A stretch of 27,028 bases of DNA, from IMG/VR virus record IMGVR_UViG_2579778989_000013; one strand, written 5' to 3'. Positions within the stretch are counted from its first letter, which is position 1, and the number at the start of each line of letters is the position of its first letter. Origin of the DNA: a virus (Duplodnaviria > Heunggongvirae > Uroviricota > Caudoviricetes). A program made the translations under genes and the position numbers. Below the pieces are notes generated by a model. The model was not told the origin of the DNA. It did not search any database and saw only the letters and a list, made by a program, of their open reading frames with translations. Shown piece after piece: positions 1 through 23,840 of this stretch.

Positions 1-1530
1 CTGTGGCCCCGCCGGACCTGCTGGTCCAGCCACCCCCGGATCGCCTTTGTCACCTTTTGGCCCCGGCGCACCTGCCGGACCTGCTGGTCCAGCCACCCCC
101 GGATCGCCTTTGTCACCTTTTGGCCCCTGTGCGCCTGCCGGGCCTGCGGCTCCCGTATCCCCTTTCGGTCCCTGTGGGCCTGCCGGACCCGTATCGCCCT
201 TGTCTCCCTTCGGGCCGGGAACGCCACCACCTGCAGCAACCTCTTCTGCCTTCTGTCTCGCCGCCTTGGCCTCATCCATTGCCGCCTTCACAGCCTTCGA
301 CGTGGCAGCCTTTGTTTCGTCATTACTGGCAGTATCACTACTTAGCTGCACAATTCCCTTCTGTGCCGTCGTCGCGTCCACCACATTTGCTGCGCTGCCC
401 GCCGGACCAGGCTCCCCGCGGGGGCCCTGAGGCCCAGCTTCGCCTCGTTCACCTTTCGGACCTGCCGGACCTGTCGCACCGGCATCTCCTTTCGGTCCCT
501 GCGGCCCCGCCGGGCCTCTCTCTCCTGCAGGTCCGCGTAGCCCCTGCTCTCCCTGAGGCCCTCGTTCTCCCGGCTCACCTTTTTCACCTGCGGGACCGGC
601 TGGGCCGGGGTCACCTTTAGGTCCCGCATCACCTTTCGGCCCGGGTGGTCCCCCCGGGTCTCCGGGGGCTCCTTTTTCACCTCTGGCCCCGGTTTCACCT
701 CGTGGACCAGCAGGCCCCTGAATCCCCCGCTCTCCTTGCGGCCCCACCGGTCCTGTTTCACCGCGTGGTCCTTGTGCGCCTTGTGGACCTGTTTCTCCAC
801 GAGGGCCTGCATCACCTTTCGGTCCGGTATCACCTTTAGGGCCTCTGGCATTCTCTGCCATACGCCTGGCCTCTTCAGCACTAACCGTAGCAGCCTCAGC
901 ACGTTTAAGAACGTCTCCGGCGGCCTCATGAGCCACTCTGGCGGTTTCAGCATGTTGTCTGGCATCATTCGCGTCTGCTGCCGCGGCCTTTTCAGATTCG
1001 CATGCCCGGGTCGCCGCTTCTGCAGCTTCACTGGCTTTTTGTCCGGCTTCAGCCGCCCTGCTGGTTGCCGTCTTTGCACTGTCAGATGCACTCTTCGCAC
1101 TGGCTGCTGCACTGTCTTTTGACTGTGTGGCCTGAGTGTTTTTTGTCGCCGTGTCTTCATTCAGGCGACGAATAGTGGCAAGGTCATCAGCCACATTATT
1201 CTGTATCTGCCGGAAATCTGTCAGCAGTTCTCCGGGTATGCTCACCTCAACAAGACTGCGGCGTAACAGCATATTGAGCGTCACCGTACTTTCGGTCCCC
1301 TCAATACGCACACGTCCGTAGACAGCAGTCTTCCCTTTCACCGTCACCGAAACCGCATACTCCCCCGGATCCATCGTCATTCCGTAATATCCACCTTCAC
1401 GGGTCACTGCCGACGCACTGGTGCCGCTGAGCGCATCCGGTGAAACTGTCAGCGCCGTCAGGGTAATATTTGCTCCTGATATCGCCTCACCATCAGGAGA
1501 TTTCAGCGTCCCCGAAACAACAACACTCAC
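1..1530 (-). CDS. phage side tail fiber protein, N-terminal part (gene continues beyond window start); contains collagen-like Gly-X-Y repeats
   Basis: Minus-strand frame is open from GTG at 1530 (RBS GGAGGTGGAG just upstream) to the window edge. My translation reads [24 protein letters not shown]..., then an Ala/Ser-rich segment, then long [22 protein letters not shown]... repeats, as in lambdoid Stf-type fibers. Not in the ORF track because it has no in-window stop; track ORFs 3..620(+) and 342..1160(-) are other frames of the same repeats. Confidence 0.8.
12..125. repeat. near-perfect 63-bp tandem direct repeat (two copies) inside the collagen-like region of the tail fiber gene
   Basis: Sequence ccggacctgctggtccagccacccccggatcgcctttgtcaccttttggcccc occurs at 12-62 and again at 75-125, a period of 63 bp (21 codons). 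Confidence 0.8.
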
Positions 1531-1601
1531 ACTCCACCTCCGTTAAACACTTTTTTACGGGCAGACAATGCACTGTCTGCCCCCTGTTTGATCCCAAGTT
1601 G

Positions 1602-1773
1602 CTCAACAAAACTCTGATAATGCTGCGCAGCCACCCGCACCATCACGGTATGCCGTGGTGTGGTTACCTTCTTTTTCGTCAAGAAACTGGTCGAGGATTT
1701 CAGGCGCAGAAGCGCCCGCAGCAATCAGCGCCAGAACGACCGCTGATAAACCATAGCGGAATTTCCTGCTCAT
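1602..1773 (-). pseudogene. truncated SAR-endolysin (phage lysozyme) N-terminal fragment, about 56 codons
   Basis: ATG at 1773 lies 4 nt after the holin stop. Translation MSRKFRYGLSAVVLALIAAGASAPEILDQFLDEKEGNHTTAYRDGAG matches the signal-anchor-release N-terminus of pinholin-associated endolysins, then diverges (GCAALSEFC) and stops. The catalytic domain is absent. Confidence 0.6.
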
Positions 1774-1777
1774 CAGC

Positions 1778-1993
1778 TTACTCTCCCCGCGCCGCCTTAC
1801 GCCGGTCCTCTTTGATTTTGAAATACAGGTTAGTCAGGTACGTCAGCAGCCCAAACAGCAGACTCCCCAGCACGCCTATTGCCGCCCACTGAGACGGGGA
1901 AACCCTGTCCAGCAACTGCAGGAACCAGTAGCCCGTTCCCACCGCTGACGTGGTGTATGACACACCTGTTGTGATTTTTTCCATCTGGTACAT
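1778..1993 (-). CDS. class II pinholin (phage 21 S21-like), 71 aa with dual-start motif MYQM
   Basis: Translation [71 protein letters not shown] has the same length and architecture as S21 (two TMDs, Met1/Met4 dual start, charged C-terminus). Lies inside track ORF 1778..2047. Confidence 0.8.
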
Positions 1994-2661: not shown

Positions 2662-4572
2662 TTATGCGGCTGCTCCAGCTTTGTTTGCTTTAACTTCCAC
2701 CGTATCAATAAGTACAGGGTAGGTTTCTGCACTACCTGTAATATCCGTAATGACAAACCTGTTGAGTCCATTAGCAGTATTGGCCCATTTCACCAGGTCA
2801 AACGCCTGTCCATCCACACCATCAAGCACCGGAGTAACATTAATGCTGTTACTGCCCTTAAATTTAAATGCAAGCGTATGCCAGTCATGGTCGAATGCGC
2901 CAAACGTGCCAAGTTCTTTTTGTTGATTAACTGTATGATGGTATGCAACATTAATACTGGCTTTATCTGTCTGGACAAAGAAAGAACTCAGATGGCCTTC
3001 ACCACCCTCACCCGGCCATTCCGCTATTCGCCAGTACAAACCAAAGGCATACTTGTTTCTGGTTGTCTCAAGATTGACGTTTTCGGGGATTTTAAACCGG
3101 ACAGCAATTTCTCCGCCTTTTTCCAGTAAAAGTTTTGCCTTGTCTGCAGCAATATCACAGTACATTGACCAGGATTTCGCGCTGTTATTTTTCTCAATTC
3201 GCAGAGCTTTATTGCCGCTGTCATCAACCAGTGTGCGCCTGCCATACACACCGTCCCAGCCATAGGGTTTCAGCTGATTGTCTGTAGCTTTTTTGGCATC
3301 GTAAAAAATTACAGACTCTGAGGTGGTAACCGGTCTGTCTGGAACAACCACCCCGGCAGTACCATTAACAAACGCAGAAGACTTACCCGCGCAGCTCAGA
3401 ATCGCCGTTGCCAGACGGTCGGAAATAATCCCACGGCGAGCCCATGAACTGAAATGGCTCGCCCTGTCCTGTGACGTCCAGGTGGCTGAGCTGTCACGCC
3501 ATTTCGAACCGTAATAACCGATACCCGGAATGTCCGGGTCTTCTTCCGGTTTGTTCGTCGGCACATTCACCCCGTTCTCATCGGTCATGAACGGTACGAA
3601 ATGGATATTCTTTTCCGTTTTATTTTTATAGCTGCCGTACACCGTCTGGTACGTGGATTCGTTCTTCTGCTTCCAGAAATACGTCGTGTCCCCGCATATC
3701 CAGGGAACACCGCCAGCAGAGCCACCGACGCACTGGCCTGCCATATCCGCCAGGTCTGCACGGAATTTATCAACCAGCGCACCAAACTGTGCGGCATGAT
3801 TTGCCGGCGTACCGCCAAAATCAAATTCCCCCTGCATCCACACCACGGCAAACAGCACATTTTTCGGGTTCTTCTCCAGTGCCGCTTTTGTTCGACCGAT
3901 AAGGTCCTTATACAGCGGCTTGTCCACACCCCAGCGGGTTGAATTCTCCGAGGCGCCACTCGCGTCACTGTATGTGCCATCAGCTCCGGTGGTGAACGCT
4001 GAACCACCACGACAGCACGGAACCAGCAGAATGCCCGCATTCGCCGGTATAAACGGCAGCAGTTTTTTGGCGATATGCAGCCCCTGCCCCACGGTTCCGT
4101 ACTGCCCCTTTGACAGGTCCGCTTTCGGATGGTTAAGACGGCTCATGTCCTGCACATCATGCAGACAATGGTCCGCCGGAATGATGTCGTTATATTTGCA
4201 TGCTGCACCGCCCGGTGTCACCGTACTGCGACGCGCTAACTGTTTAATACGTGGATCAGGGCTGTCGAATGTATCCGGTAATGGCAGTCCCTCACCGTAT
4301 GACATACCATTGGACTGACCAGCAAGCGCGATCACATAGTAATATTCTGGCGCAACAGAAGGCGCTGAGGTCGTCGGACGGTTGCCTGGCTCCTCTGGTG
4401 ATGAGATGCTCCCCTCACTCACAACTGGCTGGATGAACTCCGCACCATAACCAGCTGTCGAAATCAGCGCACTACCATAAGGCTGCCACCCTTCCTTCAG
4501 TTTTTGAGTTATTCGTTTCGCAAGGTCTGACGGCGACGCCGCCCTGACAACATCATAGTGTTTAAATGCCAT
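2662..4572 (-). CDS. nanS: prophage 9-O-acetyl sialate esterase NanS-p-like protein (DUF1737 N-terminus plus SGNH/GQSN esterase domain), 636 aa
   Basis: Track ORF with RBS GGAGGA before the ATG. N-terminus MAFKHYDVVRAASPSDLAKRITQKLKEGWQPYGS resembles DUF1737; the motif VIALAGQSNGMSYG is the GQSN esterase signature. Size and position (between Q and the holin) match nanS-p genes of Stx-type prophages. Confidence 0.8.
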   Translation of the reverse strand: MAFKHYDVVRAASPSDLAKRITQKLKEGWQPYGSALISTAGYGAEFIQPVVSEGSISSPEEPGNRPTTSAPSVAPEYYYVIALAGQSNGMSYGEGLPLPDTFDSPDPRIKQLARRSTVTPGGAACKYNDIIPADHCLHDVQDMSRLNHPKADLSKGQYGTVGQGLHIAKKLLPFIPANAGILLVPCCRGGSAFTTGADGTYSDASGASENSTRWGVDKPLYKDLIGRTKAALEKNPKNVLFAVVWMQGEFDFGGTPANHAAQFGALVDKFRADLADMAGQCVGGSAGGVPWICGDTTYFWKQKNESTYQTVYGSYKNKTEKNIHFVPFMTDENGVNVPTNKPEEDPDIPGIGYYGSKWRDSSATWTSQDRASHFSSWARRGIISDRLATAILSCAGKSSAFVNGTAGVVVPDRPVTTSESVIFYDAKKATDNQLKPYGWDGVYGRRTLVDDSGNKALRIEKNNSAKSWSMYCDIAADKAKLLLEKGGEIAVRFKIPENVNLETTRNKYAFGLYWRIAEWPGEGGEGHLSSFFVQTDKASINVAYHHTVNQQKELGTFGAFDHDWHTLAFKFKGSNSINVTPVLDGVDGQAFDLVKWANTANGLNRFVITDITGSAETYPVLIDTVEVKANKAGAAA

Positions 4573-4765
4573 GAATCCTCCCGGCCGGGATAATATTGTG
4601 AGTAAAATAAGGAGCGGGCTGAAGTCCGGAAGTTACAGGACAATGGCAGAAGGGAGACTACAGCCCGCAATTCGAAAAAGGTCGCGCAGTTGCGCAGAGT
4701 GATTACTATAGGGTATTATTCGCCAGCTGAAATATTACTTCACGTTTCATTGTTTATTCCTTGCC

Positions 4766-4794
4766 GCCCGCGTCTCCCAGCGCGGGCTTTTTTG
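4766..4794 (+). terminator. intrinsic terminator hairpin, plus-strand orientation, in the Q-nanS intergenic region
   Basis: gcccgcg-tctcccag-cgcgggc followed by ttttttg; a second hairpin agcccctc-cgga-gaggggct lies at 4805-4824. Confidence 0.4.
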
Positions 4795-5055
4795 TCCATA
4801 AGAAAGCCCCTCCGGAGAGGGGCTGGAGAGTGGCGCTATGTGCCATTGCATGGTGCCGGGTGCCTCCCGGTGAGTTCAGCCCGGTGCCACTAAACCCGCG
4901 TCATTCTCGTTTTGATAATCAGAGATTATACCGTCACCAGTCGCCCCTCCGCTCAGGGGGATTCACCATGCAGTTTTTTTCTAACAAATTCTCATCCGGG
5001 CAGACAACATTCAACTGACTTAATTGTGAGGTATGTAACATTCCTGTTGAACGGA

Positions 5056-5088
5056 TACAAAAAAAGCCAGCCACCAGGGGAGGCTGGC
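5056..5088 (-). terminator. intrinsic terminator on the minus strand, candidate tR' of the late short transcript
   Basis: Minus-strand RNA would read gccagcc-ucccc(u)ggu-ggcuggc followed by uuuuuuugu. Confidence 0.55.
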
Positions 5089-5265
5089 AAACTCGTAGAG
5101 CAAAATGCTGTTACGCAAACTTCGTTACAGGGTTATCCTGCAATACTTAAAATATACAATATTTAGAAAACTAATAGTGCCACATGAGATTTTTAAGATT
5201 TTGTTATTAATTGCGGTCGTACCTTCCTTTCTGTGTACTTTCCGTATAGCTCACAGGATTCTGGG

Positions 5266-5293
5266 TACAAAAAAACCCGCGCATCGGCGGGTT
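5266..5293 (-). terminator. intrinsic terminator on the minus strand immediately downstream of Q
   Basis: Minus-strand hairpin aacccgc-cgaugc-gcggguu followed by uuuuuuug, about 45 nt after the Q stop. Confidence 0.55.
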
Positions 5294-5338
5294 CGGCTGC
5301 GTGGCAATGTAACCACTCTTATCATGATATGCAGATTT

Positions 5339-5773
5339 TTACGATCGTAAACTATTTTTTCGCTGATAAAATACAGAGCTTCTCCCTCCCGGCAATTCAC
5401 GCTCAACATACCGATCCATCTCAAGCCTCACTCCCAGCATCATCAGCATGCCTTCAACAATCCCCTCCGCTTTGTGAAGGCGTTTACCTATACAGGTGTC
5501 AGAGCACCCATGTTTCCGTGCCAGCGCCATGAACGTCTCCCCCAACACGTAGTAATCAACCAGCAAGTCATGCAGATCGCGATTGTTCCGGTAAAGGCGG
5601 GCTATGCACCCGCATATCACCATCGCATCATCGTCACAGCACTGTGGACGTGATTTTACTTTTTCGGGGATCAGTCCCTTAAATCCGGCAGCAATGGGCG
5701 ACCATGTAACATCCTCATAGTTATTTACCGCCCATGCCCCCCAGCGCTCAAGAACCTGCCGGATATCACGCAT
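5339..5773 (-). CDS. Q: late-gene antiterminator Q (phage 82-type Q family), 144 aa
   Basis: Translation [60 protein letters not shown]... with a Cys-rich zinc-binding core, as I recall for Q82-family proteins. Lies immediately after rusA as in DLP12/Stx-phage nin-Q modules. Internal start inside track ORF 5339..5872. Confidence 0.75.
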
Positions 5774-5960
5774 CAGTATCTTTACCCCATCCGCGATGAA
5801 CCATAAGGACGCCATTGACGACGGCGTGCTTTTTCGCATCTTTATCATCAATGTATTTTCTGACTGTAGCACGATTGCAGTTCAGTATTCTGGCGACTTC
5901 TGTCTGATTTCCCCTGGTGCAGATCAGTAATTCAGGTATCGTTTGAATTTTAGCATTCAT
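5766..5960 (-). CDS. small helix-turn-helix protein (64 aa), overlaps rusA stop (1 nt) and Q start (8 nt)
   Basis: Translation [44 protein letters not shown]; HTH-like segment [19 protein letters not shown]; track ORF 5766..5963. Confidence 0.45.
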
Positions 5961-6322
5961 CAAATGTTCTCCAGTTCGGTGATTTTTATCCCCACTCTAC
6001 CGCCAGGCACTTTCACGCCGCGAATTACGCGAATGTCATCGAATTGCTCGTCGTCTTCCGCAAATCCGGCGTGGATAAGAGAGTCGAGTAAACCTTTCAG
6101 GATGTTATCGAGGTCGCGACGGCGGGAATCTGGTGGTTCAGCAATAATTGTGATGCGAAGTCGTGATTTAGTGAAAATGTCTAATCTGAGTTGCCGGATG
6201 ATTTGCTGTACGTCTTTTCGGTATTTCTGGCCTTTATCGCTGATGTAGTACTGGCTTCCCCGTCTTCGCCAGTAGGTATTCACCGTCGGCGGCCAGGGAA
6301 GCACAAACTCATATTCATTCAT
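5960..6322 (-). CDS. rusA: Holliday-junction resolvase RusA
   Basis: Translation MNEYEFVLPWPPTVNTYWRRRG...RRRDLDNILKGLLDSL matches RusA signature motifs (LPWPPS/TxN, RRRDLDN). ATGA overlap with the upstream YbcO-like gene. Confidence 0.9.
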   Translation of the reverse strand: MNEYEFVLPWPPTVNTYWRRRGSQYYISDKGQKYRKDVQQIIRQLRLDIFTKSRLRITIIAEPPDSRRRDLDNILKGLLDSLIHAGFAEDDEQFDDIRVIRGVKVPGGRVGIKITELENI

Positions 6323-6612
6323 GACTTAATCTTCCCCTCCTTCAGCAATATCGCCTGCGTCCTGATCACGCCTTCCAGGTGGTAAAGTCTGGCGTCGTTG
6401 TTGTCGAGAATGCGAGTACGGCGATCGATTTCATTATGGCAGTCACTACAGGCCCATGCAGCCAACAGGTCATCTGGCTTCATTCCCGTTCCGCAAATTC
6501 CAGCTATTCGGTAATGCGCCAAAACTGTAGTTTCAGGATTGCCATTGCATACGCCGTAAATCCGTACCTGACATTCTCTGCCACGCGCTTCTTTGCGTAG
6601 GTTTGCCATCAT
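6319..6612 (-). CDS. YbcO-like putative nuclease (DUF1364 family)
   Basis: Track ORF with Cys/His-rich motifs (CQVRIYGVCNGNPETTVLAHYR...CSDCHNEID); positioned between ninE and rusA as ybcO is in DLP12; RBS GAGGAA. Confidence 0.7.
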   Translation of the reverse strand: MMANLRKEARGRECQVRIYGVCNGNPETTVLAHYRIAGICGTGMKPDDLLAAWACSDCHNEIDRRTRILDNNDARLYHLEGVIRTQAILLKEGKIKS

Positions 6613-6632
6613 CTTATTCCTCGTACATTGAA

Positions 6633-6824
6633 CTATCCGGAGTGACTATTAAATCTTGCACGACGTCTGAGCCACCGGACATCCCACAGGTGAGACGTAT
6701 AATTGAAGGTTTTTACATCAGATTCGTTGGGGATTGGCCTGGGTTTATTTCGGGAGCGTTTCGTTGGAAGGTAATTGCAGTTTTCACAGACTATATCGGT
6801 AATGCTTCGTCGCTGTCGTCTCAT
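6633..6824 (-). CDS. ninE: NinE protein
   Basis: Translation [57 protein letters not shown] is near-identical in pattern to lambda NinE as recalled; ATGA overlap with the ninB stop. Confidence 0.8.
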
Positions 6825-7231
6825 TCATACCTCCTGTCGGTAAATCTGACACCCTGCTCCACAGCCCAGGAAGTTGTGTACTCAATCAGGCTTGCCATAC
6901 GCTTCACGCTCATCTGCGCACTGCTTTCGCGGATATTGACGTATTCACCTTCAAGACCTGGCAAAACATCAGCTTCCTGTTTTGTAGCCACGGCATGACC
7001 GCTGATTAACAAAACTTTCCACTGTTCTGGTTTTAGCCATCTGCCGCACCACTGAACCTGTCGGGAGATATCAGCGACCATCGCGTGAAATTTGGCATTT
7101 TGATCGAGATTCCGCTTGTAATCGGTGATGCGGATCGTAACGGGTTTGTCTTTATCGAGAGTTGTTGCAAGGATGGCGTTAATGGCGAATTGTTGCTGCT
7201 GTTTACTTCGGAGGAAGATAGTCTGGTTCAT
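6821..7231 (-). CDS. ninB: NinB (Orf-family recombination mediator)
   Basis: Translation shows NinB-like motifs ([26 protein letters not shown]) comparable to lambda NinB RSLDQNRKLWACLGDVSRQVEWHGRWL. Confidence 0.85.
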
Positions 7232-7285
7232 TATTCCCTCTCACTGGATTTTCCCAACAAAAAAGGAGCCGAAGCTCCTTTAGTT

Positions 7286-7951
7286 TCAGAATTCAAATTG
7301 TCTTGCCCGCAGGCTTTTCAGCATTGGCATGGCCCGCTGGATAACGGAACTTGACATGTCGAGACGTGTTACCTCCCTTAGTAGCGCGTCTCTGTTCTTC
7401 GTCACCATGTAGATGGTCTCAAACGCAATGTCATACAGCTTGTTCGTGTATGAGGAGTTCAGCTCTTTCATAATGGGATACAGGTGTTTGCTGAGGTCCT
7501 GGGCTTTTTCCATCCAGAGCTGCATGTAGCAAAGGAGGATGATTTCTTCGGCTGTGAATTGTGGCTGAATCTGCGGCTGCTGTTCGGTTGGTGCTGTTTT
7601 TCCCTGGCTGAAATAGCAGTCTTCCAGTTTTTCGAATACCTCCCACGCCCGATCGGTTTCGAGCATTTTTGCGTGACGGGCTGCGCCGCGTTCTGTCCAG
7701 AGGATGAGGGAGCGGGCATTTTTACCAACTAACCCGATTGTTTCGGGTCTGTTCTTAAACTCGCGTAATTCGTTTTTTTCAATTTTAAAGTAATGCTTTC
7801 CGGGCATGAATCGCGTCGTGTTGTTCAGAAAGTTATCAGAAATGTTTTTGATTTTTGTTCCGTAAAGGTGAGCCAACAGTTCAGTAGTAATTACGGGGAT
7901 CTGGTTATAGGTAACAGGGGAAAGGTTTTCGACAGAAATTTGAACAGCCAT
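7286..7951 (-). CDS. ORF6N/KilA-N-like domain protein (antirepressor-like), 221 aa
   Basis: N-terminus PVITTELLAHLYG...FMPGKHYFKIEKNELREFK...LWTERGAARHAKMLETDRAWEVFEKLE follows the ORF6N pattern; RBS GAGGT. Confidence 0.6.
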   Translation of the reverse strand: MAVQISVENLSPVTYNQIPVITTELLAHLYGTKIKNISDNFLNNTTRFMPGKHYFKIEKNELREFKNRPETIGLVGKNARSLILWTERGAARHAKMLETDRAWEVFEKLEDCYFSQGKTAPTEQQPQIQPQFTAEEIILLCYMQLWMEKAQDLSKHLYPIMKELNSSYTNKLYDIAFETIYMVTKNRDALLREVTRLDMSSSVIQRAMPMLKSLRARQFEF

Positions 7952-8112
7952 AATGACCTCGCGTTTCGATAATTTTTACCTCGCCACCGTCAGGTGCTAA
8001 TCATCGTGGTGGCGAACTGTGCGGGGTTAGCACTACCGGTCGAAACATCCGGCGAGCCTTTCGGCTCCCCCACACAGCCCGCCATAAATCGCGAATGTGA
8101 CTGTGCTTAGCG

Positions 8113-8136
8113 CATAAAAAAACCGCCAGCGCGGTT
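8113..8136 (-). terminator. intrinsic terminator on the minus strand
   Basis: Minus-strand hairpin aaccgc-gcug-gcgguu followed by uuuuuuuaug. Confidence 0.5.
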
Positions 8137-8293
8137 ATGCACCGTTTCGATATCCGGGGTGCTAATCCCGACGCCAGGTTTTGCTGGCGCGTGAGGAATA
8201 TAGCCCCGAACACGCGACGTTGTCAAACTGATGGCATTGCAGATCCCTACGCAATGTAACACTATGTGTTATACATTAATAACGGAACAAAAA

Positions 8294-8601
8294 ATGCGCA
8301 TTTTTAAAAACGCCTGGTTTGAGCGACTTGCACGCAAAACAAAATATCCGACCAATCACTGCGCGAAATTGTTAAACAGGCTGATAACGGGCTTATCTCA
8401 GCAAACCTGGGTAACGGCGTTATCAAGCAACGTCTGCCACGAGTCGGTGGCGGCAAATCTGGCGGTTATCGCACAATCATTTTCTATCGCGTCGGCACAA
8501 GGGCCTTTTTCGTATATGCATACGCAAAAAATGAACGTGAAAATATAACCGCTACTGAGGAAAGTGCATTTCGGAAGGGGCTCCTCACGTACTCAATCTA
8601 A
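8294..8601 (+). pseudogene. RelE/ParE-superfamily (HigB-like) toxin gene disrupted by a frameshift
   Basis: N-terminal frame MRIFKNAWFERLARKTK... (track ORF 8231..8548). The conserved toxin core KISDQSLREIVKQADNGLISANLGNGVIKQRLPRVGGGKSGGYRTIIFYRVGTRAFFVYAYAKNERENITATEESAFRK is in the -1 frame and ends at stop 8599-8601. The frames meet in the A-run around 8339-8345. Confidence 0.6.
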
Positions 8602-8655
8602 CAGATGAACAACTGGCACAACTGATTCTACAGGGTCAGTTTACGGAGGTACCCA

Positions 8656-8973
8656 ATGAGTAAAAATTACCGCAGTGATGCGCTTGCATCCGTACATGAA
8701 ATGATGGAATCGCTTCATGATATCGGCGCAGTAACGAAACAGACTATGCGAGAATTCGATGAAACTTGTCTCCAGCCAGCGCCGGTAATGTCTCCGGAAA
8801 GGATCCGTGCACTGCGCGAACGAGAGCATCTGTCTCAACCTGTTTTTGCCAGATACCTCAACGTCAGTAAAAACCTGATATCAGACTGGGAACGTGGTGT
8901 AAAACGGCCGGGAGGTGCCGCTCTTCGCCTTCTTTCAGTCGTAGAGAAAAACGGAATCCAGGTAATATCATGA
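8656..8973 (+). CDS. HTH (XRE-family) antitoxin partner of the HigB-like toxin
   Basis: Track ORF; C-terminal HTH PERIRALREREHLSQPVFARYLNVSKNLISDWERGVKRPGGAALRLL; follows the toxin by about 55 bp in HigB-HigA order. Confidence 0.7.
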   Translation: MSKNYRSDALASVHEMMESLHDIGAVTKQTMREFDETCLQPAPVMSPERIRALREREHLSQPVFARYLNVSKNLISDWERGVKRPGGAALRLLSVVEKNGIQVIS

Positions 8974-8987
8974 TACTCCAATACAAC

Positions 8988-9010
8988 AAAACCCGCCGAA
9001 GCGGGTTTTC
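8988..9010. terminator. bidirectional intrinsic terminator between the convergent higA-like and doc-like genes
   Basis: aaacccgc-cgaa-gcgggttttc, with A-tract upstream and T-tract downstream. Confidence 0.6.
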
Positions 9011-9023
9011 ATTAGAAGCACCT

Positions 9024-9509
9024 TTAGTTTTGCTGTTCTATTTTAAGCTTGATAGTTTCATACAAAACAACAGTTGCGCCTGTTTTACATAATTCCCGGC
9101 CGTCATACGCACGAGACCAATAACACAACCAGTTCTCGAGATCTTCTCGAGTATAGGTTTTGCAGGCCAGTCCCTCTGCCATTTCCACGATTTCATCGCC
9201 TGGTGCTGTTAACTCATAGCCATTCAACAACAAGAAGACATAACCAGCCATCATAGCTGTTCGTTTGTTTGCATTAGCAAATGGATGATTCTGAATCAGA
9301 CTTTCAATCAATACTGATGCCAGTACAAACATGTCATTAGTCTGTTCATACCATCGAACCATGCTGGGACGAGACTGAGAAGAACTTAAATTATCAACAC
9401 TCAGCACACTAACAGGTTCATCTGGTGTTTGAAGCTCAATTAAAAGGCGATTAATTTCGGTAAGATCATCAAACGAAAGGTAGTGCACTCCTTCAACAAT
9501 ATCAGCCAT
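9024..9509 (-). CDS. doc: Doc (death-on-curing)/Fic-family toxin, 161 aa
   Basis: Motif HPFANANKRTA fits the Doc-type signature HxFx(D/N)(A/G)NKR rather than the Fic motif HPFx(D/E)GNGR. ATG at 9509 inside track ORF 9024..9518. Confidence 0.75.
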   Translation of the reverse strand: MADIVEGVHYLSFDDLTEINRLLIELQTPDEPVSVLSVDNLSSSQSRPSMVRWYEQTNDMFVLASVLIESLIQNHPFANANKRTAMMAGYVFLLLNGYELTAPGDEIVEMAEGLACKTYTREDLENWLCYWSRAYDGRELCKTGATVVLYETIKLKIEQQN

Positions 9510-9527
9510 AGAGCACAATACCCATCA

Positions 9528-9707
9528 TTACACTTTTGAAAGTTCTTCCATTGCCTTCTCGTAACGAGAAAAACCGAAATCGAAAGCATTTTTCACCTGC
9601 TCACGATGAGTGCAATTTTCATCGATAGCCGGGCGCGGAGCTGCCACAACGCTTTTATCGCGAGGGGGAATAGTCAATCGCGGGTGTTTTTTTAGTGCGT
9701 AGCTCAT
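9528..9707 (-). CDS. putative antitoxin partner of Doc (unrecognised family), 59 aa
   Basis: Small ORF whose stop (9528-9530) lies 18 nt upstream of the doc ATG; translation MSYALKKHPRLTIPPRDKSVVAAPRPAIDENCTHREQVKNAFDFGFSRYEKAMEELSKV. Assignment rests on position only. Confidence 0.4.
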   Translation of the reverse strand: MSYALKKHPRLTIPPRDKSVVAAPRPAIDENCTHREQVKNAFDFGFSRYEKAMEELSKV

Positions 9708-9822
9708 TGGGTGTACCCTTACTTCTCCGTCCTGTTCTTTAACAAAAATCAAGTCAATACAAAATTAGTCAGGCTAATGTTGTTAGCATAGCCTAATACC
9801 AATCGTATTCACAACCACAGTA

Positions 9823-9848
9823 AGTGAAAAAACCCGCCGAAGCGGGTT
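9823..9848 (-). terminator. intrinsic terminator downstream of hok (minus strand)
   Basis: Minus-strand hairpin aacccgc-uucg-gcggguu followed by uuuuuca; same stem sequence as the 8988-9010 terminator. Confidence 0.6.
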
Positions 9849-9916
9849 AAGTGCGGGTGCGTTGAGGATGCCTGACACATCAGAGGTGGCGAGGGGTTTC
9901 TCCCCCGCCAGGGCTC

Positions 9917-10072
9917 TTACTCCTCAGGTTCGTAAGCTGTGAAGACAGCAACCTCCGTCTGACCGGTTCGGATTCGTACCTCGCAGAGGTCTTTCCTCGT
10001 TACCAGTGCCGTCACTACGACGGTAATACAGATGACGATCAGGGCGACTAACATCGCCTTTTGCTGCTTCAT
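9917..10072 (-). CDS. hok: Hok/Gef-family type I toxin (51 aa)
   Basis: Translation MKQQKAMLVALIVICITVVVTALVTRKDLCEVRIRTGQTEVAVFTAYEPEE closely matches the HokD/RelF sequence as I recall it. An in-frame upstream ATG at 10129 gives a Mok-like leader (track ORF 9917..10129). Fold-back hairpins lie in the leader at about 10190-10230. Confidence 0.85.
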   Translation of the reverse strand: MKQQKAMLVALIVICITVVVTALVTRKDLCEVRIRTGQTEVAVFTAYEPEE

Positions 10073-10317
10073 AGCCTGCTTCTCCTTGCCTTTCGGCGCG
10101 TAAGAGGCTAACCTACATGTGTCTAGCATGAAATTGGCCTCAGATTAATGTTAGGCGTCTTGCAGGACGCGTAATGTTAACTGGGGCTTTTCTCTGTCTG
10201 CCTTACGGTGGCATGCCCGAGGCAGACAGCCTCAAGCACCCGCAGCAATTCTACTTAACTCTCGCTTTACCGCAAACCGTTTTTACCCGATATGGGAATT
10301 CCCATATCGTAATGAAT

Positions 10318-10422
10318 TCAGTTCCCTAGTCGATCCATCAAAAACACAACCAGGCAGTAAACGCCCACAACAGCAATAACAGCCAGCGCACCTTCCATTG
10401 CCAGTGATATATCATCCGACAT
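10318..10422 (-). CDS. small hydrophobic peptide (34 aa), putative membrane protein
   Basis: RBS AAGGAGG 6 nt before the ATG; translation MSDDISLAMEGALAVIAVVGVYCLVVFLMDRLGN (one TM helix). Shorter than the ORF-track cutoff. Confidence 0.4.
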   Translation of the reverse strand: MSDDISLAMEGALAVIAVVGVYCLVVFLMDRLGN

Positions 10423-10457
10423 ATTCCCTCCTTTGGTGTTAATCCCGGCGAACGTTT

Positions 10458-10541
10458 TTACCCCCACCGACAAATAACATATACTAAAAAAGCGATAGCC
10501 ATAGCAACGCCTGTAATTGCAAATGCTTCAGGCCAGTTCAT
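10458..10541 (-). CDS. small hydrophobic peptide (27 aa), translationally coupled to the upstream DUF551 gene
   Basis: ATGA start/stop overlap with the DUF551 gene; RBS AGGAGG; translation MNWPEAFAITGVAMAIAFLVYVICRWG. Confidence 0.35.
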   Translation of the reverse strand: MNWPEAFAITGVAMAIAFLVYVICRWG

Positions 10542-11122
10542 TGGCGCACCTCCTGCGGCGGTTCTGGTAGCGGCATCCAGTCGGTTACATTGCGGCTCTG
10601 TGTTTCGAAAAATTCATCACCATCACGGACTACATCAAAAAACTCACCGTCTCGATATTGCGCATAAAGAACGAATGCGCCATCACATAAAATAATTACG
10701 TGCTGACCGTCATCCGGCATTCGCTCACTACAGCTTATCCAACCATCCAGAGTTACCGGATGGTTGGTTGACGTTTCCGAGATTTCCCGAAAATTATTGG
10801 TTGACGAACCCTTCTTTTCCCGAAAGTTTCCAGCCTGAAGCATGGCGGCGCTGTCTGGCGGGGCAGCATATAGCGGCACGTATATTTCCGGTTCCTTATC
10901 AGCACCGGGTTGCTCTTCCAGTGAGAATGTCTTTCCGGTAAATCGATTCATATAAAGCACGGGCTCTGCTTCCAGCGAAGCCTGAGCAACAAGGGCCAGT
11001 GCTAAATCCAACTCAATTGCCTCGAGAGAATTTTTGAATGCTGTCTGTTTTACTGCAAATTTCATCGCCTTTACATTTTCACTAACATGACTGATTAACT
11101 GCTCTTTTGTAAAAGTGGTCAT
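10538..11122 (-). CDS. DUF551-domain phage protein
   Basis: Strong RBS AAGGAGA before ATG at 11122 (inside track ORF 10538..11182). C-terminal region GWISCSERMPDDGQHVIILCDGAFVLYAQYRDGEFFDV...WMPLPEPP is typical of DUF551. Confidence 0.6.
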   Translation of the reverse strand: MTTFTKEQLISHVSENVKAMKFAVKQTAFKNSLEAIELDLALALVAQASLEAEPVLYMNRFTGKTFSLEEQPGADKEPEIYVPLYAAPPDSAAMLQAGNFREKKGSSTNNFREISETSTNHPVTLDGWISCSERMPDDGQHVIILCDGAFVLYAQYRDGEFFDVVRDGDEFFETQSRNVTDWMPLPEPPQEVRQ

Positions 11123-11178
11123 CTCATTCTCCTTTGATGCGAATGCCAGCGACAATTGAAGCCTGATAGCTAATTTAC

Positions 11179-11574
11179 TCACAGTACCGCCTCCTGAAAA
11201 TTCCCCTGATAGAAAGCCAGCACGCGCTGCATAACTTCACTATTCCGGCACTCGCGACAGATTATGTTCAGGCGTCTATCGTAGCGGCGAATTTCTCCGT
11301 CTGGTAACTTTCGAATCAATGTCTGGTCAGTTGTTTTCTCCGGTGTCTTACGCCATACGCGATACACCTGTTCTGATGCAAAAACACCGTATTTACCGGA
11401 CATGTATAAATCGCCACAAGCCAGTACATCCACAAGGCAACGTCTGACTGAATGCCAGCCTGCTCCCGTCGCTCTCTCCAGTTGCGATATCGTCATGCGT
11501 TCATTTTTGCGTACCAATCCGATAATTCGTGCCTTCAGTTCTTCCCGCTGTTCGTGTGTAAAAGGTTTCGCCAT
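11179..11574 (-). CDS. hypothetical nin-region protein (131 aa)
   Basis: RBS GGAGG before ATG at 11574; translation MAKPFTHEQREELKARIIGLVRKNERMTISQLERATGAGWHSVRRC...; within track ORF 11179..11589. Confidence 0.5.
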   Translation of the reverse strand: MAKPFTHEQREELKARIIGLVRKNERMTISQLERATGAGWHSVRRCLVDVLACGDLYMSGKYGVFASEQVYRVWRKTPEKTTDQTLIRKLPDGEIRRYDRRLNIICRECRNSEVMQRVLAFYQGNFQEAVL

Positions 11575-11589
11575 AAGCGCCTCCGGCAA

Positions 11590-12360
11590 TCACTTTTCCG
11601 ACACAATACGACCGGATGAATCGACAATCTGTCGAACAATATCCCGGTGCTTGTTCAGCTCCCGCAGCGCGGCGCAGACTCGCTCCCACTTCTGGACCTG
11701 TTTTTTGGCGCGACGAAGTTCTCGACTGGCAGCATGCAGCGATGGAAGCATCACCGAACTGGCAGATTTTTCGGTGAATGATGGAACTTCTCGGATAAAC
11801 TCATCTGTACTGGCCTTTGCCGTGCTCTCTGATGCCAACGGAAAACGATTCATTTCATCGCCTGCCGCGCTGTTTTCTGCGTCATGGTGTGATTGCTTAT
11901 TCTGCGATGATAAAGCGCTCAAATCGCCGTTTTCGACATCAGGCATTTTGTAACGGAATTTTCCGTTGCTGATCTCGCGTACCAGGCGTCTCGTTGCTGT
12001 TACCACCGCCAACGTGGAAGCAACCTTACGAGTGCTGACACCGAACTTCCCCGCCAGTTCCTCACACGTTTTAGCCCCATCCTGATCGATAAACTCAATC
12101 ATCATGTCTGCGGTAACTTTTGGAGCGACCTCTTCGGTTACCACATCCGGCGCTTCAGGTTGTAGTGCCTGCCCTTCGGTTACCCCGGCTTCACCTTCGA
12201 CAGCCAGAAACCAGGTGTGACCCGTTTTATCAACAACGCCATTTTTTTTGAGCTCCCACAGTTCGTTGAGAACTTCTTCACGGCTGATATCAAGCCGCGC
12301 CGCCAGTTCAACAGAATTGGCTTTTCCCATCGCTTTCAGTGCATGCAATACGGTTTCCAT
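11590..12360 (-). CDS. hypothetical phage protein with N-terminal winged-helix-like region (possibly DUF1627 family)
   Basis: Track ORF, 256 aa; follows the DnaC-like gene as in Stx-type prophages; family assignment from memory only. Confidence 0.55.
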   Translation of the reverse strand: METVLHALKAMGKANSVELAARLDISREEVLNELWELKKNGVVDKTGHTWFLAVEGEAGVTEGQALQPEAPDVVTEEVAPKVTADMMIEFIDQDGAKTCEELAGKFGVSTRKVASTLAVVTATRRLVREISNGKFRYKMPDVENGDLSALSSQNKQSHHDAENSAAGDEMNRFPLASESTAKASTDEFIREVPSFTEKSASSVMLPSLHAASRELRRAKKQVQKWERVCAALRELNKHRDIVRQIVDSSGRIVSEK

Positions 12361-12385
12361 CGAAAATTTACCTCGTCAAAAATTC

Positions 12386-13126
12386 TCACATACCCTGACG
12401 TCCAACGTTTGACCGCCAGCTCTCCCAGTTAAAATTCACCCAACGACCACCGTTCATGGTCATCCGGTCCATAATCCTCTCACCAAGAAGCGTGCTCATT
12501 GCGGCATGATTCAGGTTTGTCAGCATCCCGACACTGCGCAGTGATGCCGTCCGGCGGTCAACAATCTGGTGCAGTACCACCTGCTCGTTTTTCGTCTCAC
12601 GCTGGATGCCAATTTCGTCAAGAACCAGGAGGTCCACTTCGCACAGTTCACGCAAAAATTTTTCCCCTGACAGTCCGTCGTCATAGCTGGCATGTAACGC
12701 GCTCATCACATCCGCCACGGTGACCACTATCACGGATTTACCGGCCTTCAGCAGACGATTACCCACAGCCGCCGCCAGATGATTTTTTCCGGTTCCCGGA
12801 TTCCCGCTGAACACGAAGTTTGTATAACCGGTCATTAATTCATCGACAATGGATTTCGCCTGGCTCAGAGCATGGCGCTGACCGTCGTTCTGCACCCGGT
12901 AGTTCCCGAATGAGCACTTCCTGTGAAGCGGCTGGATGCCCGAACGATTCAGGATTTTTTCAACCCGCGTCTGGTGATTCTGGCGGTTAACTTCCTCGCT
13001 GCGCTTCCGGCCCTCAGCCAGTTGCCATTCCCGCCATTCGTCGGTCGTCCGGAACGGTGCTGCCACGTGCGGTGGTGCCAGACGGCGCACCCGTTCAAGA
13101 ATCCCTCCTGTCGAAATGTTTTTCAT
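12386..13126 (-). CDS. DnaC/IstB-like AAA+ helicase loader (phage replication protein)
   Basis: Walker A FSGNPGTGKNHLAAAVG and Walker B LLVLDEIG; located directly after the initiator gene. Confidence 0.85.
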   Translation of the reverse strand: MKNISTGGILERVRRLAPPHVAAPFRTTDEWREWQLAEGRKRSEEVNRQNHQTRVEKILNRSGIQPLHRKCSFGNYRVQNDGQRHALSQAKSIVDELMTGYTNFVFSGNPGTGKNHLAAAVGNRLLKAGKSVIVVTVADVMSALHASYDDGLSGEKFLRELCEVDLLVLDEIGIQRETKNEQVVLHQIVDRRTASLRSVGMLTNLNHAAMSTLLGERIMDRMTMNGGRWVNFNWESWRSNVGRQGM

Positions 13127-14903: not shown

Positions 14904-15131
14904 TTATGCAGCCAGAAGGTTCTTTTTGCTTATTTCAAGCATTTCGCTTGCTTGATATTTGCCACCAGAAATCTCTTCGATTTTTGATGCGTATTTCGTT
15001 TTCCCAAAAAACTCAGTCTTAGGGAGGAAGCCGTTTTTGAGCCACTTATAGACAGCCCTTTCGCTAACTCCACAAGCCTTCGCAACTTCAGGGATGCCGA
15101 CACCTTTAATCGGCTCATCAAGATTTTGCAT
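14904..15131 (-). CDS. cro: Cro-like HTH repressor (75 aa)
   Basis: Divergent from cI; RBS AAGGA; HTH GIPEVAKACGVSERAVYKWL; internal start within track ORF 14904..15164. Confidence 0.7.
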   Translation of the reverse strand: MQNLDEPIKGVGIPEVAKACGVSERAVYKWLKNGFLPKTEFFGKTKYASKIEEISGGKYQASEMLEISKKNLLAA

Positions 15132-15209
15132 AGGGATATCCTTTTTCGTACTTTCAGTACGCATTATGATTGAACTGAAAGTTTTTGCAAGTGCTTTAGT
15201 ATCGTACTC
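15132..15209. promoter_or_regulatory. OR-type divergent promoter/operator region between cro and cI
   Basis: 78-bp intergenic region containing the palindrome CGTACT-TTC-AGTACG and further TCGTAC-containing repeats. Confidence 0.5.
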
Positions 15210-15917
15210 ATGGTTCAGAATGAAAAAGTGCGCAAAGAATTCGCCCAGCGGCTAGCGCAAGCCTGTAAAGAAGCTGGTCTTGATGAACATGGTAGGGGAA
15301 TGGCTATAGCCCGTGCCCTTTCTCTTTCGTCCAAAGGCGTTAGCAAATGGTTTAATGCTGAGTCTTTACCGCGTCAGGAAAAAATGAATGCGCTTGCGAA
15401 ATTTCTAAACGTTGATGTTGTTTGGCTTCAGCACGGCACTTCGTTAAATGGAGCGAATGATGAAGATACTCTTTCATTTGTTGGCAAATTAAAAAAAGGG
15501 TTAGTGCGCGTGGTTGGTGAGGCAATTCTTGGTGTTGATGGTGCCATCGAGATGACCGAAGAGCGCGATGGGTGGCTCAAAATTTATAGCGATGATCCAG
15601 ATGCCTTTGGCCTTCGTGTGAAAGGAGACAGCATGTGGCCCAGAATAAAATCAGGAGAATATGTACTCATTGAGCCTAACACCAAAGTATTCCCGGGTGA
15701 TGAGGTGTTTGTCAGAACCGTTGAAGGACACAACATGATTAAGGTTCTTGGCTATGACAGAGATGGAGAATACCAATTTACAAGCATTAACCAGGATCAC
15801 AGGCCTATAACGTTGCCTTATCATCAAGTAGCAAAGGTGGAGTATGTAGCTGGTATTCTGAAGCAATCTCGCCATCTGGATGACATCGAGGCAAGGGAGT
15901 GGCTGAAAAGTTCGTGA
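15210..15917 (+). CDS. cI: CI-like repressor (N-terminal HTH plus C-terminal S24 LexA-type autopeptidase domain)
   Basis: Track ORF, 235 aa; S24 motifs GDSMWP and downstream Lys (NMIKVL); N-terminal HTH; divergent from cro. Confidence 0.85.
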   Translation: MVQNEKVRKEFAQRLAQACKEAGLDEHGRGMAIARALSLSSKGVSKWFNAESLPRQEKMNALAKFLNVDVVWLQHGTSLNGANDEDTLSFVGKLKKGLVRVVGEAILGVDGAIEMTEERDGWLKIYSDDPDAFGLRVKGDSMWPRIKSGEYVLIEPNTKVFPGDEVFVRTVEGHNMIKVLGYDRDGEYQFTSINQDHRPITLPYHQVAKVEYVAGILKQSRHLDDIEAREWLKSS

Positions 15918-15977
15918 CTTCATCGTCACATAGCTGGTAACCAGTGGCCAGAAGAAACGTTTGGGTGAGGAGGATAG

Positions 15978-16319
15978 ATGGCGTTCACTGACCTTGAATA
16001 TCAAGCGGTCAAAAAAGAAGTTCACCAATTCATTGAAAGCATAAGGCCGCCTGAACATATCCGCAATGAACTGGATATTGTTTATAGCATCAATGACCAA
16101 ACGATAGATATCGGCGAACAGCGCCCCGTGTGGCAGGGCAACCCAGGTGAAACAAACATCCTGCCATCAGCAAGAATCAAGTACATACGTTCTCTGGATA
16201 GATGGAAAATCTATTGGATGCGGAAGGATATGAAATGGCATCAGTACAGTACTGAACTTTCGCTGACTGATGCGCTTGAGCTTGTGCGTGCTGACCCGGA
16301 TTGCTGCTTCTTCGGATGA
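15978..16319 (+). CDS. hypothetical protein (113 aa), first gene downstream of cI
   Basis: Track ORF with strong RBS GAGGAGG; same strand as cI; no motif recognised. Confidence 0.6.
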   Translation: MAFTDLEYQAVKKEVHQFIESIRPPEHIRNELDIVYSINDQTIDIGEQRPVWQGNPGETNILPSARIKYIRSLDRWKIYWMRKDMKWHQYSTELSLTDALELVRADPDCCFFG

Positions 16320-16386
16320 GTGAAGAGACGTTTGGATGATGGATGGTCGCAGAGATGCGGCCTGATTCTAAAATAGGATATAAAAA

Positions 16387-16848
16387 ATGAGAATACTAGG
16401 TGTTAGAGCGGCGCCCAAAGTTACATCTTTTGTTGTATATTGCACTAATGAGTCTGCACTCAAATGTGTTGATGTTATTAAAATACCTTCGACCTTAGAC
16501 ACACCAGAAAAATTAAAGTATGTGAGAAATAACATCCTCGACATTCTTAATTTATATAATGTTGAATTAGCTGCCATACGCGTTACTGAATCAAACTCTG
16601 ATAATCTTAGCATTGACCGCCTTTATATAGAAGCTGTTATTCAAGAAGCATTTTCAAGCAGTGATGTAAGAAAATATTACACTATTAGAAAATCTGGCAT
16701 GAAATCATCATTGAACCTAACAGAGATCGAGTATAAAGAAATATTGAAGTCACACCGCAATATAAATGGAATCGATAATTCTGGTTTTACAACTGAAACA
16801 AATGAAGCTGTTTTGGCTGCTCTATCTGCGGAGGTAAGGGGATGCTAA
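16387..16848 (+). CDS. hypothetical protein (153 aa), translationally coupled to the downstream kinase gene
   Basis: Track ORF; its 3' end overlaps the kinase start by 7 nt; AT-rich codon usage unlike flanking phage genes. Confidence 0.55.
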   Translation: MRILGVRAAPKVTSFVVYCTNESALKCVDVIKIPSTLDTPEKLKYVRNNILDILNLYNVELAAIRVTESNSDNLSIDRLYIEAVIQEAFSSSDVRKYYTIRKSGMKSSLNLTEIEYKEILKSHRNINGIDNSGFTTETNEAVLAALSAEVRGC

Positions 16849-17888
16849 CTCCATACAAAAGAGCTGATGTAGAATTCGAATGGATTAGTGATCTAGAAGA
16901 ACAGGGTTGTTTTTCAAAAGTATATCTGGCTCATGACAGACACCTAGCTCATGACTTGGTGATTAAAGAAATAGAAAAAAAAGAAAACACTAACCACGAC
17001 GACTACTTTAATGAAGCAAGGCTTCTCTATAAACATGCACATCCAAATATTGTGCAAGTTCAGTATGCTGCTCAATGTGAGAGCAATATCTATATAGCCA
17101 TGCCATTTTATCATAATGGTTCGCTAAACCAATTAATGAAAAAAAATAATCTTACAAGCAGGGAGATAATACGGTATTCCATTCAATTTTTAAGTGGACT
17201 TTATCATATACACTCAAAAGGTCTTATGCATTTTGATATAAAACCTAATAACATTATGATATCAAACAGAAATGAGGCCATGCTATCTGACTTTGGATTA
17301 TCTCAGTTAGTCAATGAGGAATCGAGAGCTGCGCCTGAGTTTGGATATCATTTTCATGTGCCACCGGAATATTTTTCTTTATCAACAAATGATTATAATT
17401 TCACATATGACATATATCAGGCAGGATTAACCATATATAGAATGTGTGTTGGACATGATAATTTTGAAAGAGAAAGATCTGCATTTAGCACGATTGAACA
17501 ACTCAGAGAGTCGATAATTAATGGCTGCTATCCATTAAAAGAGTATCCTCCCCATATACATAAAAAATTAATAACAATAGTGAACAAATGCATTCATGTA
17601 GATCCAAATGAAAGATATCAATCCGTACTAGATGTACTAAACGATCTCTCAGCTATAAGTGATGGCGTTCTTGACTGGCGTCTACAGATGACGAAACCAA
17701 CTAACGGCACATGCGAATGGCAAAAAAAGTCTGGGGACGCTATACTGTCTATAGTTTTTGACGCAGAAAATTCGTCTACTACTGGTTTTCGTTTATACGA
17801 TGATGGGCGGAAAAGGCGTGCTACGAACTTAACAATATCCTCAGGATGTACCCCTACAAAACTGTATAGGTTATTAAAGGATAACTGA
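16842..17888 (+). CDS. Hanks-type (eukaryotic-like) Ser/Thr protein kinase, 348 aa
   Basis: Track ORF with RBS GGAGGTAAGGGG. Kinase subdomains: Gly-rich loop region EEQGCFSKVY, lysine in LVIKEI, catalytic loop HFDIKPNN (non-RD), SDFG, VPPEY; about 90-aa C-terminal extension of unknown function. Confidence 0.85.
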   Translation: MLTPYKRADVEFEWISDLEEQGCFSKVYLAHDRHLAHDLVIKEIEKKENTNHDDYFNEARLLYKHAHPNIVQVQYAAQCESNIYIAMPFYHNGSLNQLMKKNNLTSREIIRYSIQFLSGLYHIHSKGLMHFDIKPNNIMISNRNEAMLSDFGLSQLVNEESRAAPEFGYHFHVPPEYFSLSTNDYNFTYDIYQAGLTIYRMCVGHDNFERERSAFSTIEQLRESIINGCYPLKEYPPHIHKKLITIVNKCIHVDPNERYQSVLDVLNDLSAISDGVLDWRLQMTKPTNGTCEWQKKSGDAILSIVFDAENSSTTGFRLYDDGRKRRATNLTISSGCTPTKLYRLLKDN

Positions 17889-17890
17889 TC

Positions 17891-18031: not shown

Positions 18032-18054
18032 AAAGATAAATACTTTAAAATCTA

Positions 18055-18080
18055 GCCCGGCCTCAGCGCCGGGTTTTCTT
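18055..18080 (+). terminator. intrinsic terminator closing the cI-kinase block
   Basis: cccggc-ctcagc-gccggg followed by ttttcttt. Confidence 0.6.
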
Positions 18081-23835: not shown

Positions 23836-23840
23836 AACTG

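Follow-up and report, generated by a model that had tools for sequence, protein, structure and literature searches.

A probable internal deletion joins a truncated lysozyme gene to the end of the adaptor gene in a 933W-like Escherichia coli prophage that keeps a phage-21-type holin

Late gene expression and lysis have been described for several systems related to the element analyzed here. In Shiga toxin (Stx)-converting Sepvirinae such as Escherichia phages PA2 (KP682371), TL-2011c and VT2-Sakai, the late operon is arranged in the order Q, esterase, DUF1378, DUF826, S, R, Rz, terminase, portal, capsid, adaptor and tail fiber, and lambdoid phages switch on this operon through Q. Phage 21 pairs the pinholin S21 with the signal-anchor-release (SAR) endolysin R21 (PDB 3HDE, 3HDF), and holes of the S21 type, about 2 nm in size, dissipate the proton-motive force without being large enough to let the lambda R endolysin through (PMC6116005). 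Internal deletion is an ordinary route by which cryptic prophages arise (PMC6379469). Here, we analyzed a stretch of 27,028 nucleotides (IMG/VR record IMGVR_UViG_2579778989_000013), of which the whole length is meant wherever the window is mentioned, and in which the remaining late genes follow the order of the Stx phages. Comparison with intact relatives suggests, with a probability of about 0.92, that the window represents most of an stx-negative, short-tailed, 933W-like (Sepvirinae-like) lambdoid prophage whose late operon was shortened by 11,547 bp in a single event of illegitimate recombination, with 1-bp microhomology at window position 1633. The element is a remnant of a Sepvirinae-like phage, to be labeled a defective prophage, and is of an ordinary and already known kind.

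Relatedness to Sepvirinae is seen on either side of the junction, where PA2 (Sepvirinae, Oslovirus) and other phages are 95-99.5% identical in nucleotide sequence, along with the synteny of the late genes; head and tail morphogenesis genes of the Sepvirinae-like type are not found in the window, as they fall in the deleted interval. Megablast of positions 2100-1300 against phage records gave matches to many Stx phages, including the three named above, that cover their S-R region at 95-98% identity and stop at 1633. For positions 1660-1100, the matches do not begin until about 1636 and run downward from there, with 99.4-99.5% identity to the same phages in their 'structural protein / tail fiber' region, that is, the adaptor and tail-fiber genes. 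In a base-level alignment to PA2, the R gene can be followed to ...GATGGTGCGGGT and the adaptor gene is taken up at TGGCTGCGCAG..., with the T at 1633 present in both. Against three independent intact references (PA2 and the prophages of E. coli strains SCPM-O-B-9427 and FORC_069), the homology on the R side ends at the very base at which the homology on the adaptor side starts, so that blastn and manual alignment place the deletion junction at 1633..1633 (no strand assigned), a single T common to both parental sequences in an imperfect match of GCGGGT to GGGGCT.

The two junction flanks occur in the same order and orientation in the intact relatives, where they are 11,547 bp apart (FORC_069 and SCPM-O-B-9427) or 11,673 bp apart (PA2). 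A search for repeats or longer microhomology at the breakpoints returned only the one shared base and an unrelated 6-mer nearby, and this lack of a flanking repeat or longer microhomology points to illegitimate recombination. The window is thus collinear with its relatives on both sides of one breakpoint and lacks the intervening genes, 11 of which were lost whole and two truncated. According to the annotation of SCPM-O-B-9427 and FORC_069, the interval holds lysozyme residues 48-177, a 37-codon open reading frame (ORF), a 152-residue 'lysis protein' that by its position is an Rz-type spanin, an oppositely oriented lipopolysaccharide-core heptose(II)-phosphate phosphatase, two terminase subunits, a portal protein, a 335-residue protein, an N4-gp56-family major capsid protein, three small structural proteins and adaptor residues 1-182. 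When each of these proteins was searched against the window by tblastn, none was found except for lysozyme residues 1-47 and adaptor residues 182-216. A first-pass annotation of this DNA had proposed one large internal deletion with its junction near 1630, had noted that Rz, terminase, head and tail genes were missing between R and the fiber gene, and had suggested alignment to intact phages as the way to the exact breakpoint; that alignment, run on PA2 and the two E. coli prophages, bears out the deletion and refines its position to 1633, and the tblastn results for the relatives' proteins agree with the loss of the lysis protein in the Rz position, terminase and head genes.

On one side of the junction, the holin gene S is intact (1778..1993, minus strand; 71 residues) and of the phage-21 type, which belongs to class II and the pinholin family. 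Its product matches PF04971 'Bacteriophage P21 holin S' (Phage_holin_2_1) with an E-value of 7e-33 and 112.8 bits against a cut-off of 26, covering model positions 1-63 of 64, and is 100% identical to the protein of the intact relative. Two hydrophobic segments and a Met1/Met4 dual-start motif (MYQMEK...) were read from the sequence by eye. By analogy with S21, the holin would form depolarizing pinholes of about 2 nm that do not let a soluble endolysin pass.

The R gene that follows is reduced to a chimeric 56-codon ORF, here called R' (1603..1773, minus strand), for which translation and tblastn show R codons 1-47, nine out-of-frame adaptor codons and a TGA stop. The resulting protein, MSRKFRYGLSAVVLALIAAG...AYRDGAGGCAALSEFC (56 residues), ends in the foreign tail GCAALSEFC, and its residues 1-47, with the SAR N-terminal segment, are 100% identical to the intact lysozyme. 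The intact 177-residue homologue matches PF00959 (Phage_lysozyme) at residues 33-167, and no Pfam match was obtained for the R' product. T4-type lysozymes use a Glu-8X-Asp/Cys-5X-Thr catalytic triad (PMC3556154), and alignment of the intact lysozyme to the SAR lysozyme of phage 21 (PDB 3HDE) placed this triad at Glu35, Asp44 and Thr50; the Ala/Gly-rich segment YGLSAVVLALIAAGASAP of the intact protein precedes the domain aligned to R21. R' keeps Glu35 and Asp44 and diverges after Gly47, so that Thr50 and the whole catalytic domain are lost. A tblastn search of the whole window in all frames with the full-length lysozyme matched only residues 1-47 (1773-1633, 100% identity), and no full-length endolysin was found in another frame. 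R' would therefore be, at most, a small membrane-tethered SAR peptide without an enzyme domain. In NCBI, the R' protein is named 'putative lysozyme [Escherichia coli 2-011-08_S3_C3]', an entry of 56 residues that represents a non-functional fusion fragment, which matters for correct annotation.

On the other side, tblastn and translation identified the 3' remnant of the head-tail adaptor gene (SU10_adaptor / DUF6682; 1527..1633, minus strand), comprising its last 34 codons (AAQHYQSFVEQ...NGGGV) and the stop. Adaptor residues 182-216 of 216 align at 1634-1530, and the junction joins R codon 47 out of frame to adaptor codon 183 or thereabouts; the intact 216-residue adaptor protein matches PF24175. 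The remnant lacks a start codon and is read in a different frame from R', and the approximately 100 bp between the junction and the start of the fiber gene are the in-frame 3' end of the adaptor coding sequence, not a spacer. The fiber start at GTG 1530 is the annotated start in PA2, SCPM-O-B-9427 and FORC_069, and its context is native, with GGAGG as the Shine-Dalgarno sequence six bases before it and a GTGA in which it overlaps the stop of the adaptor gene.

A hairpin, its 9-bp stem rich in G+C and its loop 6 nt long, was found by folding within the adaptor remnant (1559..1582, minus strand). The 56-nt segment that contains it folds at -21 kcal/mol (z = -3.7; 0/200 shuffles fold as well), and the hairpin sequence occurs, identical and in the same place, in phage PA2. 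We rejected the hairpin as an element created by the junction, given that it is native and lies within the adaptor coding sequence of intact PA2, and also as a terminator of the late transcript, as it is a run of A that follows it on the coding strand and the call that resembles a terminator falls on the other strand and has a poor T tail.

The first-pass annotation had described this region as an intact S21-like pinholin at 1778-1993, an endolysin ORF that keeps only its SAR N-terminus and stops after 56 codons, a 9-bp-stem hairpin at about 1559-1582 and, about 70 bp past the endolysin stop, a side tail-fiber gene starting at GTG 1530 to which the truncated R was fused. The 71-residue holin with its full-length PF04971 match, the ORF at 1773-1603 with 47 lysozyme and nine foreign codons, the stem with its 6-nt loop, and a fiber start 72 nt after the stop of the 56-codon ORF are all as described, and the full-length endolysin in another frame that it had named as contrary evidence is absent from the window. 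Some of its details changed. The cassette is truncated as stated, but the partner joined to R is the 3' end of the adaptor gene and not the tail-fiber gene directly; likewise, the fiber gene and its start stand, but the gene encodes the collagen-repeat fiber of 933W-like phages and not a lambda-type 'side' fiber.

The chimeric 56-residue protein is unique to the junction, and an exact look-up of it, the one search that recovered the junction, returned 14 contigs, of which 10 were examined in sequence and all carried the identical 41-mer across the junction. These 10 comprise two NCBI draft genomes and eight ENA metagenome assemblies (one labeled human gut), and the contig naming styles (k119, k127, k141, NODE_, scaffolds, NCBI) indicate different projects and assemblers. 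They are 100% identical over about 570 bp, from S to the fiber start, and their outer flanks fall into at least three types upstream of S, with one contig differing in the fiber gene. The holin DNA is identical in 10/10 of these contigs; in contigs L006 and L007 no holin gene was called, yet the DNA is the same as in the window, and an apparent disruption of the holin there was dismissed as a gene-calling omission. In contig L005 (ERZ916001 k127_12231), the last 45 bases or so diverge about 40 bp into the fiber gene, representing either a different fiber allele or a chimeric contig end. The near-identical NCBI contigs are 110 kb and 249 kb in length. Junction-bearing isolates are listed as E. 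coli 2-011-08_S3_C3, GCA_000713235.1 and GCA_030002175.1.

These contigs bear on the caveat, raised by the first-pass annotation itself, that the join could be an assembly artefact, in which two contigs of an intact prophage, or of two prophages, were mis-joined at 1633. Such an artefact would account for the absence of the junction from complete E. coli genomes and phage records, and the window does end in a repeat of the kind at which short-read assemblies break. However, the identical 41-mer is present in 10 contigs from different studies and assemblers, some with diverged outer flanks, and the two sides share a single base, whereas a mis-join by a graph assembler needs an overlap of k-1 bases. 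The one-base overlap together with the 10 independently assembled contigs excludes an assembler artefact, leaving it a practically negligible chance, and establishes the junction at the level of contigs. The scar is heritable and circulates in E. coli from human samples. The deletion is apparently recent, because no further decay is visible, and the junction 41-mer can conveniently serve as a clonal marker, pointing to one lineage of E. coli that is seen in ENA metagenome assemblies, human gut among them.

The identity of the parental sequences is relevant to whether the deletion was internal to one prophage. In the prophage of FORC_069 (NZ_CP023061.1, about 2.495-2.511 Mb), the flanks are 100% identical to the window over 468 bp on the R side and 99.9% identical over 934 bp on the tail side, which makes this prophage, as far as its flanks tell, the best model of the parent. 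It is improbable that the R gene of this prophage was instead joined to the adaptor gene of a second 933W-like prophage, by a chromosomal deletion or in a hybrid. E. coli genomes often harbor several such prophages, some genomes have two or three places for the tail-fiber segment, and an O104:H4-type relative is 100% identical to the window on the R side and 98.1% on the tail side, all of which would be compatible with such a rearrangement. Nonetheless, the single FORC_069 prophage matches both sides in the same order, with a gap of exactly 11,547 bp, and an internal deletion is the more economical explanation.

A number of points weigh against the interpretation as a single deletion in an inducible but defective prophage. 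No record spanning the junction was found by megablast in complete E. coli genomes (0/5,426) or phage records (0/50,697), nor did an exact scan for the 41-mer in genome_contigs (one genome per species), viral_contigs and JGI metagenome_contigs return any match; the allele is thus rare, with its support coming from draft and metagenome assemblies. Nested, successive deletions that left one final junction would be indistinguishable from a single event. The window and the two NCBI contigs end in tail-fiber repeats, which leaves the far end of the prophage outside the view. Additionally, it is from gene content that we infer inducibility, death without lysis and the failure to form particles, and endolysin and spanin could come in trans from another lambdoid prophage in the same cell.

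With these points in mind, the consequences of a single internal deletion can be proposed. The element would retain its immunity and accessory genes, and after SOS cleavage of cI, both replication and late transcription dependent on N and Q would probably still be possible. DNA packaging and head building would be impossible without terminase, portal and capsid, and no infective particles would be expected upon induction due to this loss. The lysis cassette, cut down to the pinholin, should depolarize and kill the cell but would not lyse it, as both muramidase and spanin are gone; this presumed inability to lyse refers to the element's own endolysin and spanin. An intact pinholin without endolysin and spanin predicts death without lysis on induction, which is a mildly interesting point. 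Otherwise, the case would be a textbook example of early prophage decay, with a single illegitimate deletion at 1-bp microhomology in an element that is intact elsewhere.

The identical core shared by contigs with mosaic outer flanks invites other explanations for the persistence of the allele. It is very improbable that S, R' and the tail-fiber gene are kept by selection as a domesticated module, whether for pinholin-based suicide or abortive infection or as a store of tail-fiber alleles for recombination. The segment from S to the fiber start is 100% identical in 10 samples and no other gene of the window has decayed, lysis modules of defective prophages can be co-opted, as in DLP12 (PMC7918800), and, for lambdoid remnants, preferential conservation of tail genes is reported, as far as the citing article relates (Bobay et al. 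2014, as cited in PMC6379469). However, identity with zero substitutions says nothing about purifying selection and would be expected just as much after a recent event, and the allele is rare. The number of S-R-like places per E. coli genome has a median of 2 and reaches 17, so that gene conversion among the lambdoid prophages of one cell would be expected to yield mosaic flanks. Additionally, the prophage of E. coli LZHX12 at the same site decayed differently. A related proposal, which we also regard as quite improbable, is that homologous recombination in the conserved S and fiber flanks lets the allele persist and move from one co-resident 933W-like prophage to another, possibly as a device for death without lysis. 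Spread by recombination would explain an identical core with mosaic flanks in the ten samples, and if it took place, the allele could disable related prophages, or kill the cell on induction or superinfection without releasing phage. A recent, single internal deletion nevertheless remains our preferred reading of the locus.

The tail-fiber gene occupies the start of the window, where its first 510 codons lie (1..1530, minus strand, GTG start) before it runs off the window start. Its domains, by Pfam searches, are an N-terminal CarboxypepD_reg-like domain, Collagen Gly-X-Y repeats and Phage_fiber_2. The window begins within a 63-bp tandem repeat (1-220; 2.2 copies, 94% matches) that codes for collagen-like Gly-X-Y, and this edge in the fiber repeat is probably a short-read assembly break. 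The full-length fiber protein, 677 residues, is seen in the junction-bearing metagenome contig L008, the only contig that reads through, where a 170-residue Gp38_N-like gene comes next. In relatives the fiber varies in length (635, 645, 671 and 677 residues).

The remaining late genes are intact and in place on the minus strand. Pfam searches identified a SASA-family carbohydrate esterase of 636 residues (4572-2662), DUF1378 (2523-2341) and DUF826 (2315-2070), each with 100% protein identity to the relative, as well as the 144-residue form of the antiterminator Q (5339..5773; PF06530). An STnc100-type small RNA lies just downstream of Q (4794-5000, minus strand; Rfam RF02076, 168.7 bits), in the place that the late promoter leader, tRNA genes and stx occupy in Stx phages. 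Both stx and tRNA genes were looked for between Q and the esterase, and none is present.

Outside the deletion, the window and the SCPM-O-B-9427 prophage are collinear and 98-99% identical, with one exception, the immunity region (14911-18302), which has been swapped. By tblastn, all SCPM-O-B-9427 genes outside the gap and the swapped region are full length in the window, most at 93-100% identity and the lowest at 57% and 81%; these include integrase, exonuclease, Bet, Gam, RecE, Kil, replication proteins, cII, NinB, NinE, RusA, NinH and Q. cI (Peptidase_S24), cII, N and Q are intact by Pfam, with N adjoining the swapped region. The immunity region itself encodes cro, a LexA-like cI, DUF3024, a 153-residue protein without a family and a eukaryotic-type Ser/Thr kinase (16842-17888), an arrangement that we take to resemble the cI-stk arrangement of phage 933W. 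The same gene set recurs in the LZHX12 prophage.

The window ends at 27028 with the integrase stop codon (27026-27028) and includes no attachment site or host DNA. In the relatives, the prophage adjoins ynfG, a selenate-reductase subunit gene, which is shortened and comes directly after the integrase, with ynfH next in line. An excisionase-like helix-turn-helix (HTH) reading frame immediately upstream of the integrase gene (25545-25870, plus strand) runs into it; NCBI annotates this stretch as an incomplete HTH pseudogene in both relatives, and the excisionase of the whole prophage family may be unusual or damaged. A 690-residue RecE-family exonuclease lies beside lambda-type Gam, Bet and Exo (21470-25300, plus strand), giving the element two recombination systems.

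Other accessory features were also noted. Rfam matches to C4 antisense RNA, isrK and the c4 a1/b1 target were obtained at 8005-8203 (minus strand), beside a 221-residue ORF6N/P22_AR_C antirepressor-like gene (7286-7951), and together they suggest an RNA-controlled antirepressor module in the style of P1/P7. Between the window and the intact relative, the antirepressor proteins share only 81% identity. A cluster of toxin-antitoxin type spans 8231-10241, with a RelE/ParE-like protein and an HTH protein (8395-8973), a Doc/Fic 'death-on-curing' toxin (9027-9509) and hok with sok RNA (9920-10241; Rfam, 116.9 bits).

Among the known elements, the prophages of FORC_069 and of O104:H4-type strains (SCPM-O-B-9427, 2011C-3493) share the gene order of the whole window, from the integrase (annotated intD) to the tail fiber, and most shared proteins are 93-100% identical. 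In contrast to the window, they are complete between R codon 48 and adaptor codon 182 (11,547 bp), and they also differ from it in the immunity region. Unlike the Stx-converting Sepvirinae, the window is without stx, without tRNA genes between Q and the esterase and without the 11.7-kb morphogenesis block, which excludes a viable phage.

The prophage of E. coli LZHX12 (NZ_CP155555.1), inserted at the same ynfG site, has the same integrase, the same immunity type (cI, DUF3024, kinase) and the same early and replication genes, with 98.8% identity over 84% of the query. Its lesion is independent and different, in that S, R, the lysis protein and the phosphatase are kept and all terminase, head, adaptor and tail-fiber genes are absent. 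This different lesion at the same site supports haphazard decay over a designed architecture. At the LZHX12 locus (4096-13000), a few early-type genes (Ea22-like, DUF4752, TraR, antirepressor) abut the ynfG remnant.

With respect to lysis, the holin of the window is a full-length member of the S21 Pfam family and the intact R is a homologue of R21 (PMC6116005, PMC3556154). Compared to phage 21, only the holin half of the system remains here, R being cut after residue 47 and the spanin genes gone. The DLP12 prophage of E. coli K-12 (essD, rrrD, rzpD, rzoD) is the best-known remnant with a lysis cassette of the S21 type and is likewise a defective lambdoid element, in which an S21-type holin is kept and morphogenesis genes have been lost on a large scale. 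DLP12 has presumably lost its immunity and replication modules, both of which are intact in the window. Its endolysin RrrD (PDB 4ZPU) is a homologue of the intact R (PMC7918800). DLP12 keeps a complete holin-endolysin-spanin operon that has been proposed to be domesticated (PMC7918800), whereas in the window the endolysin and spanin have been destroyed and the holin stands intact.

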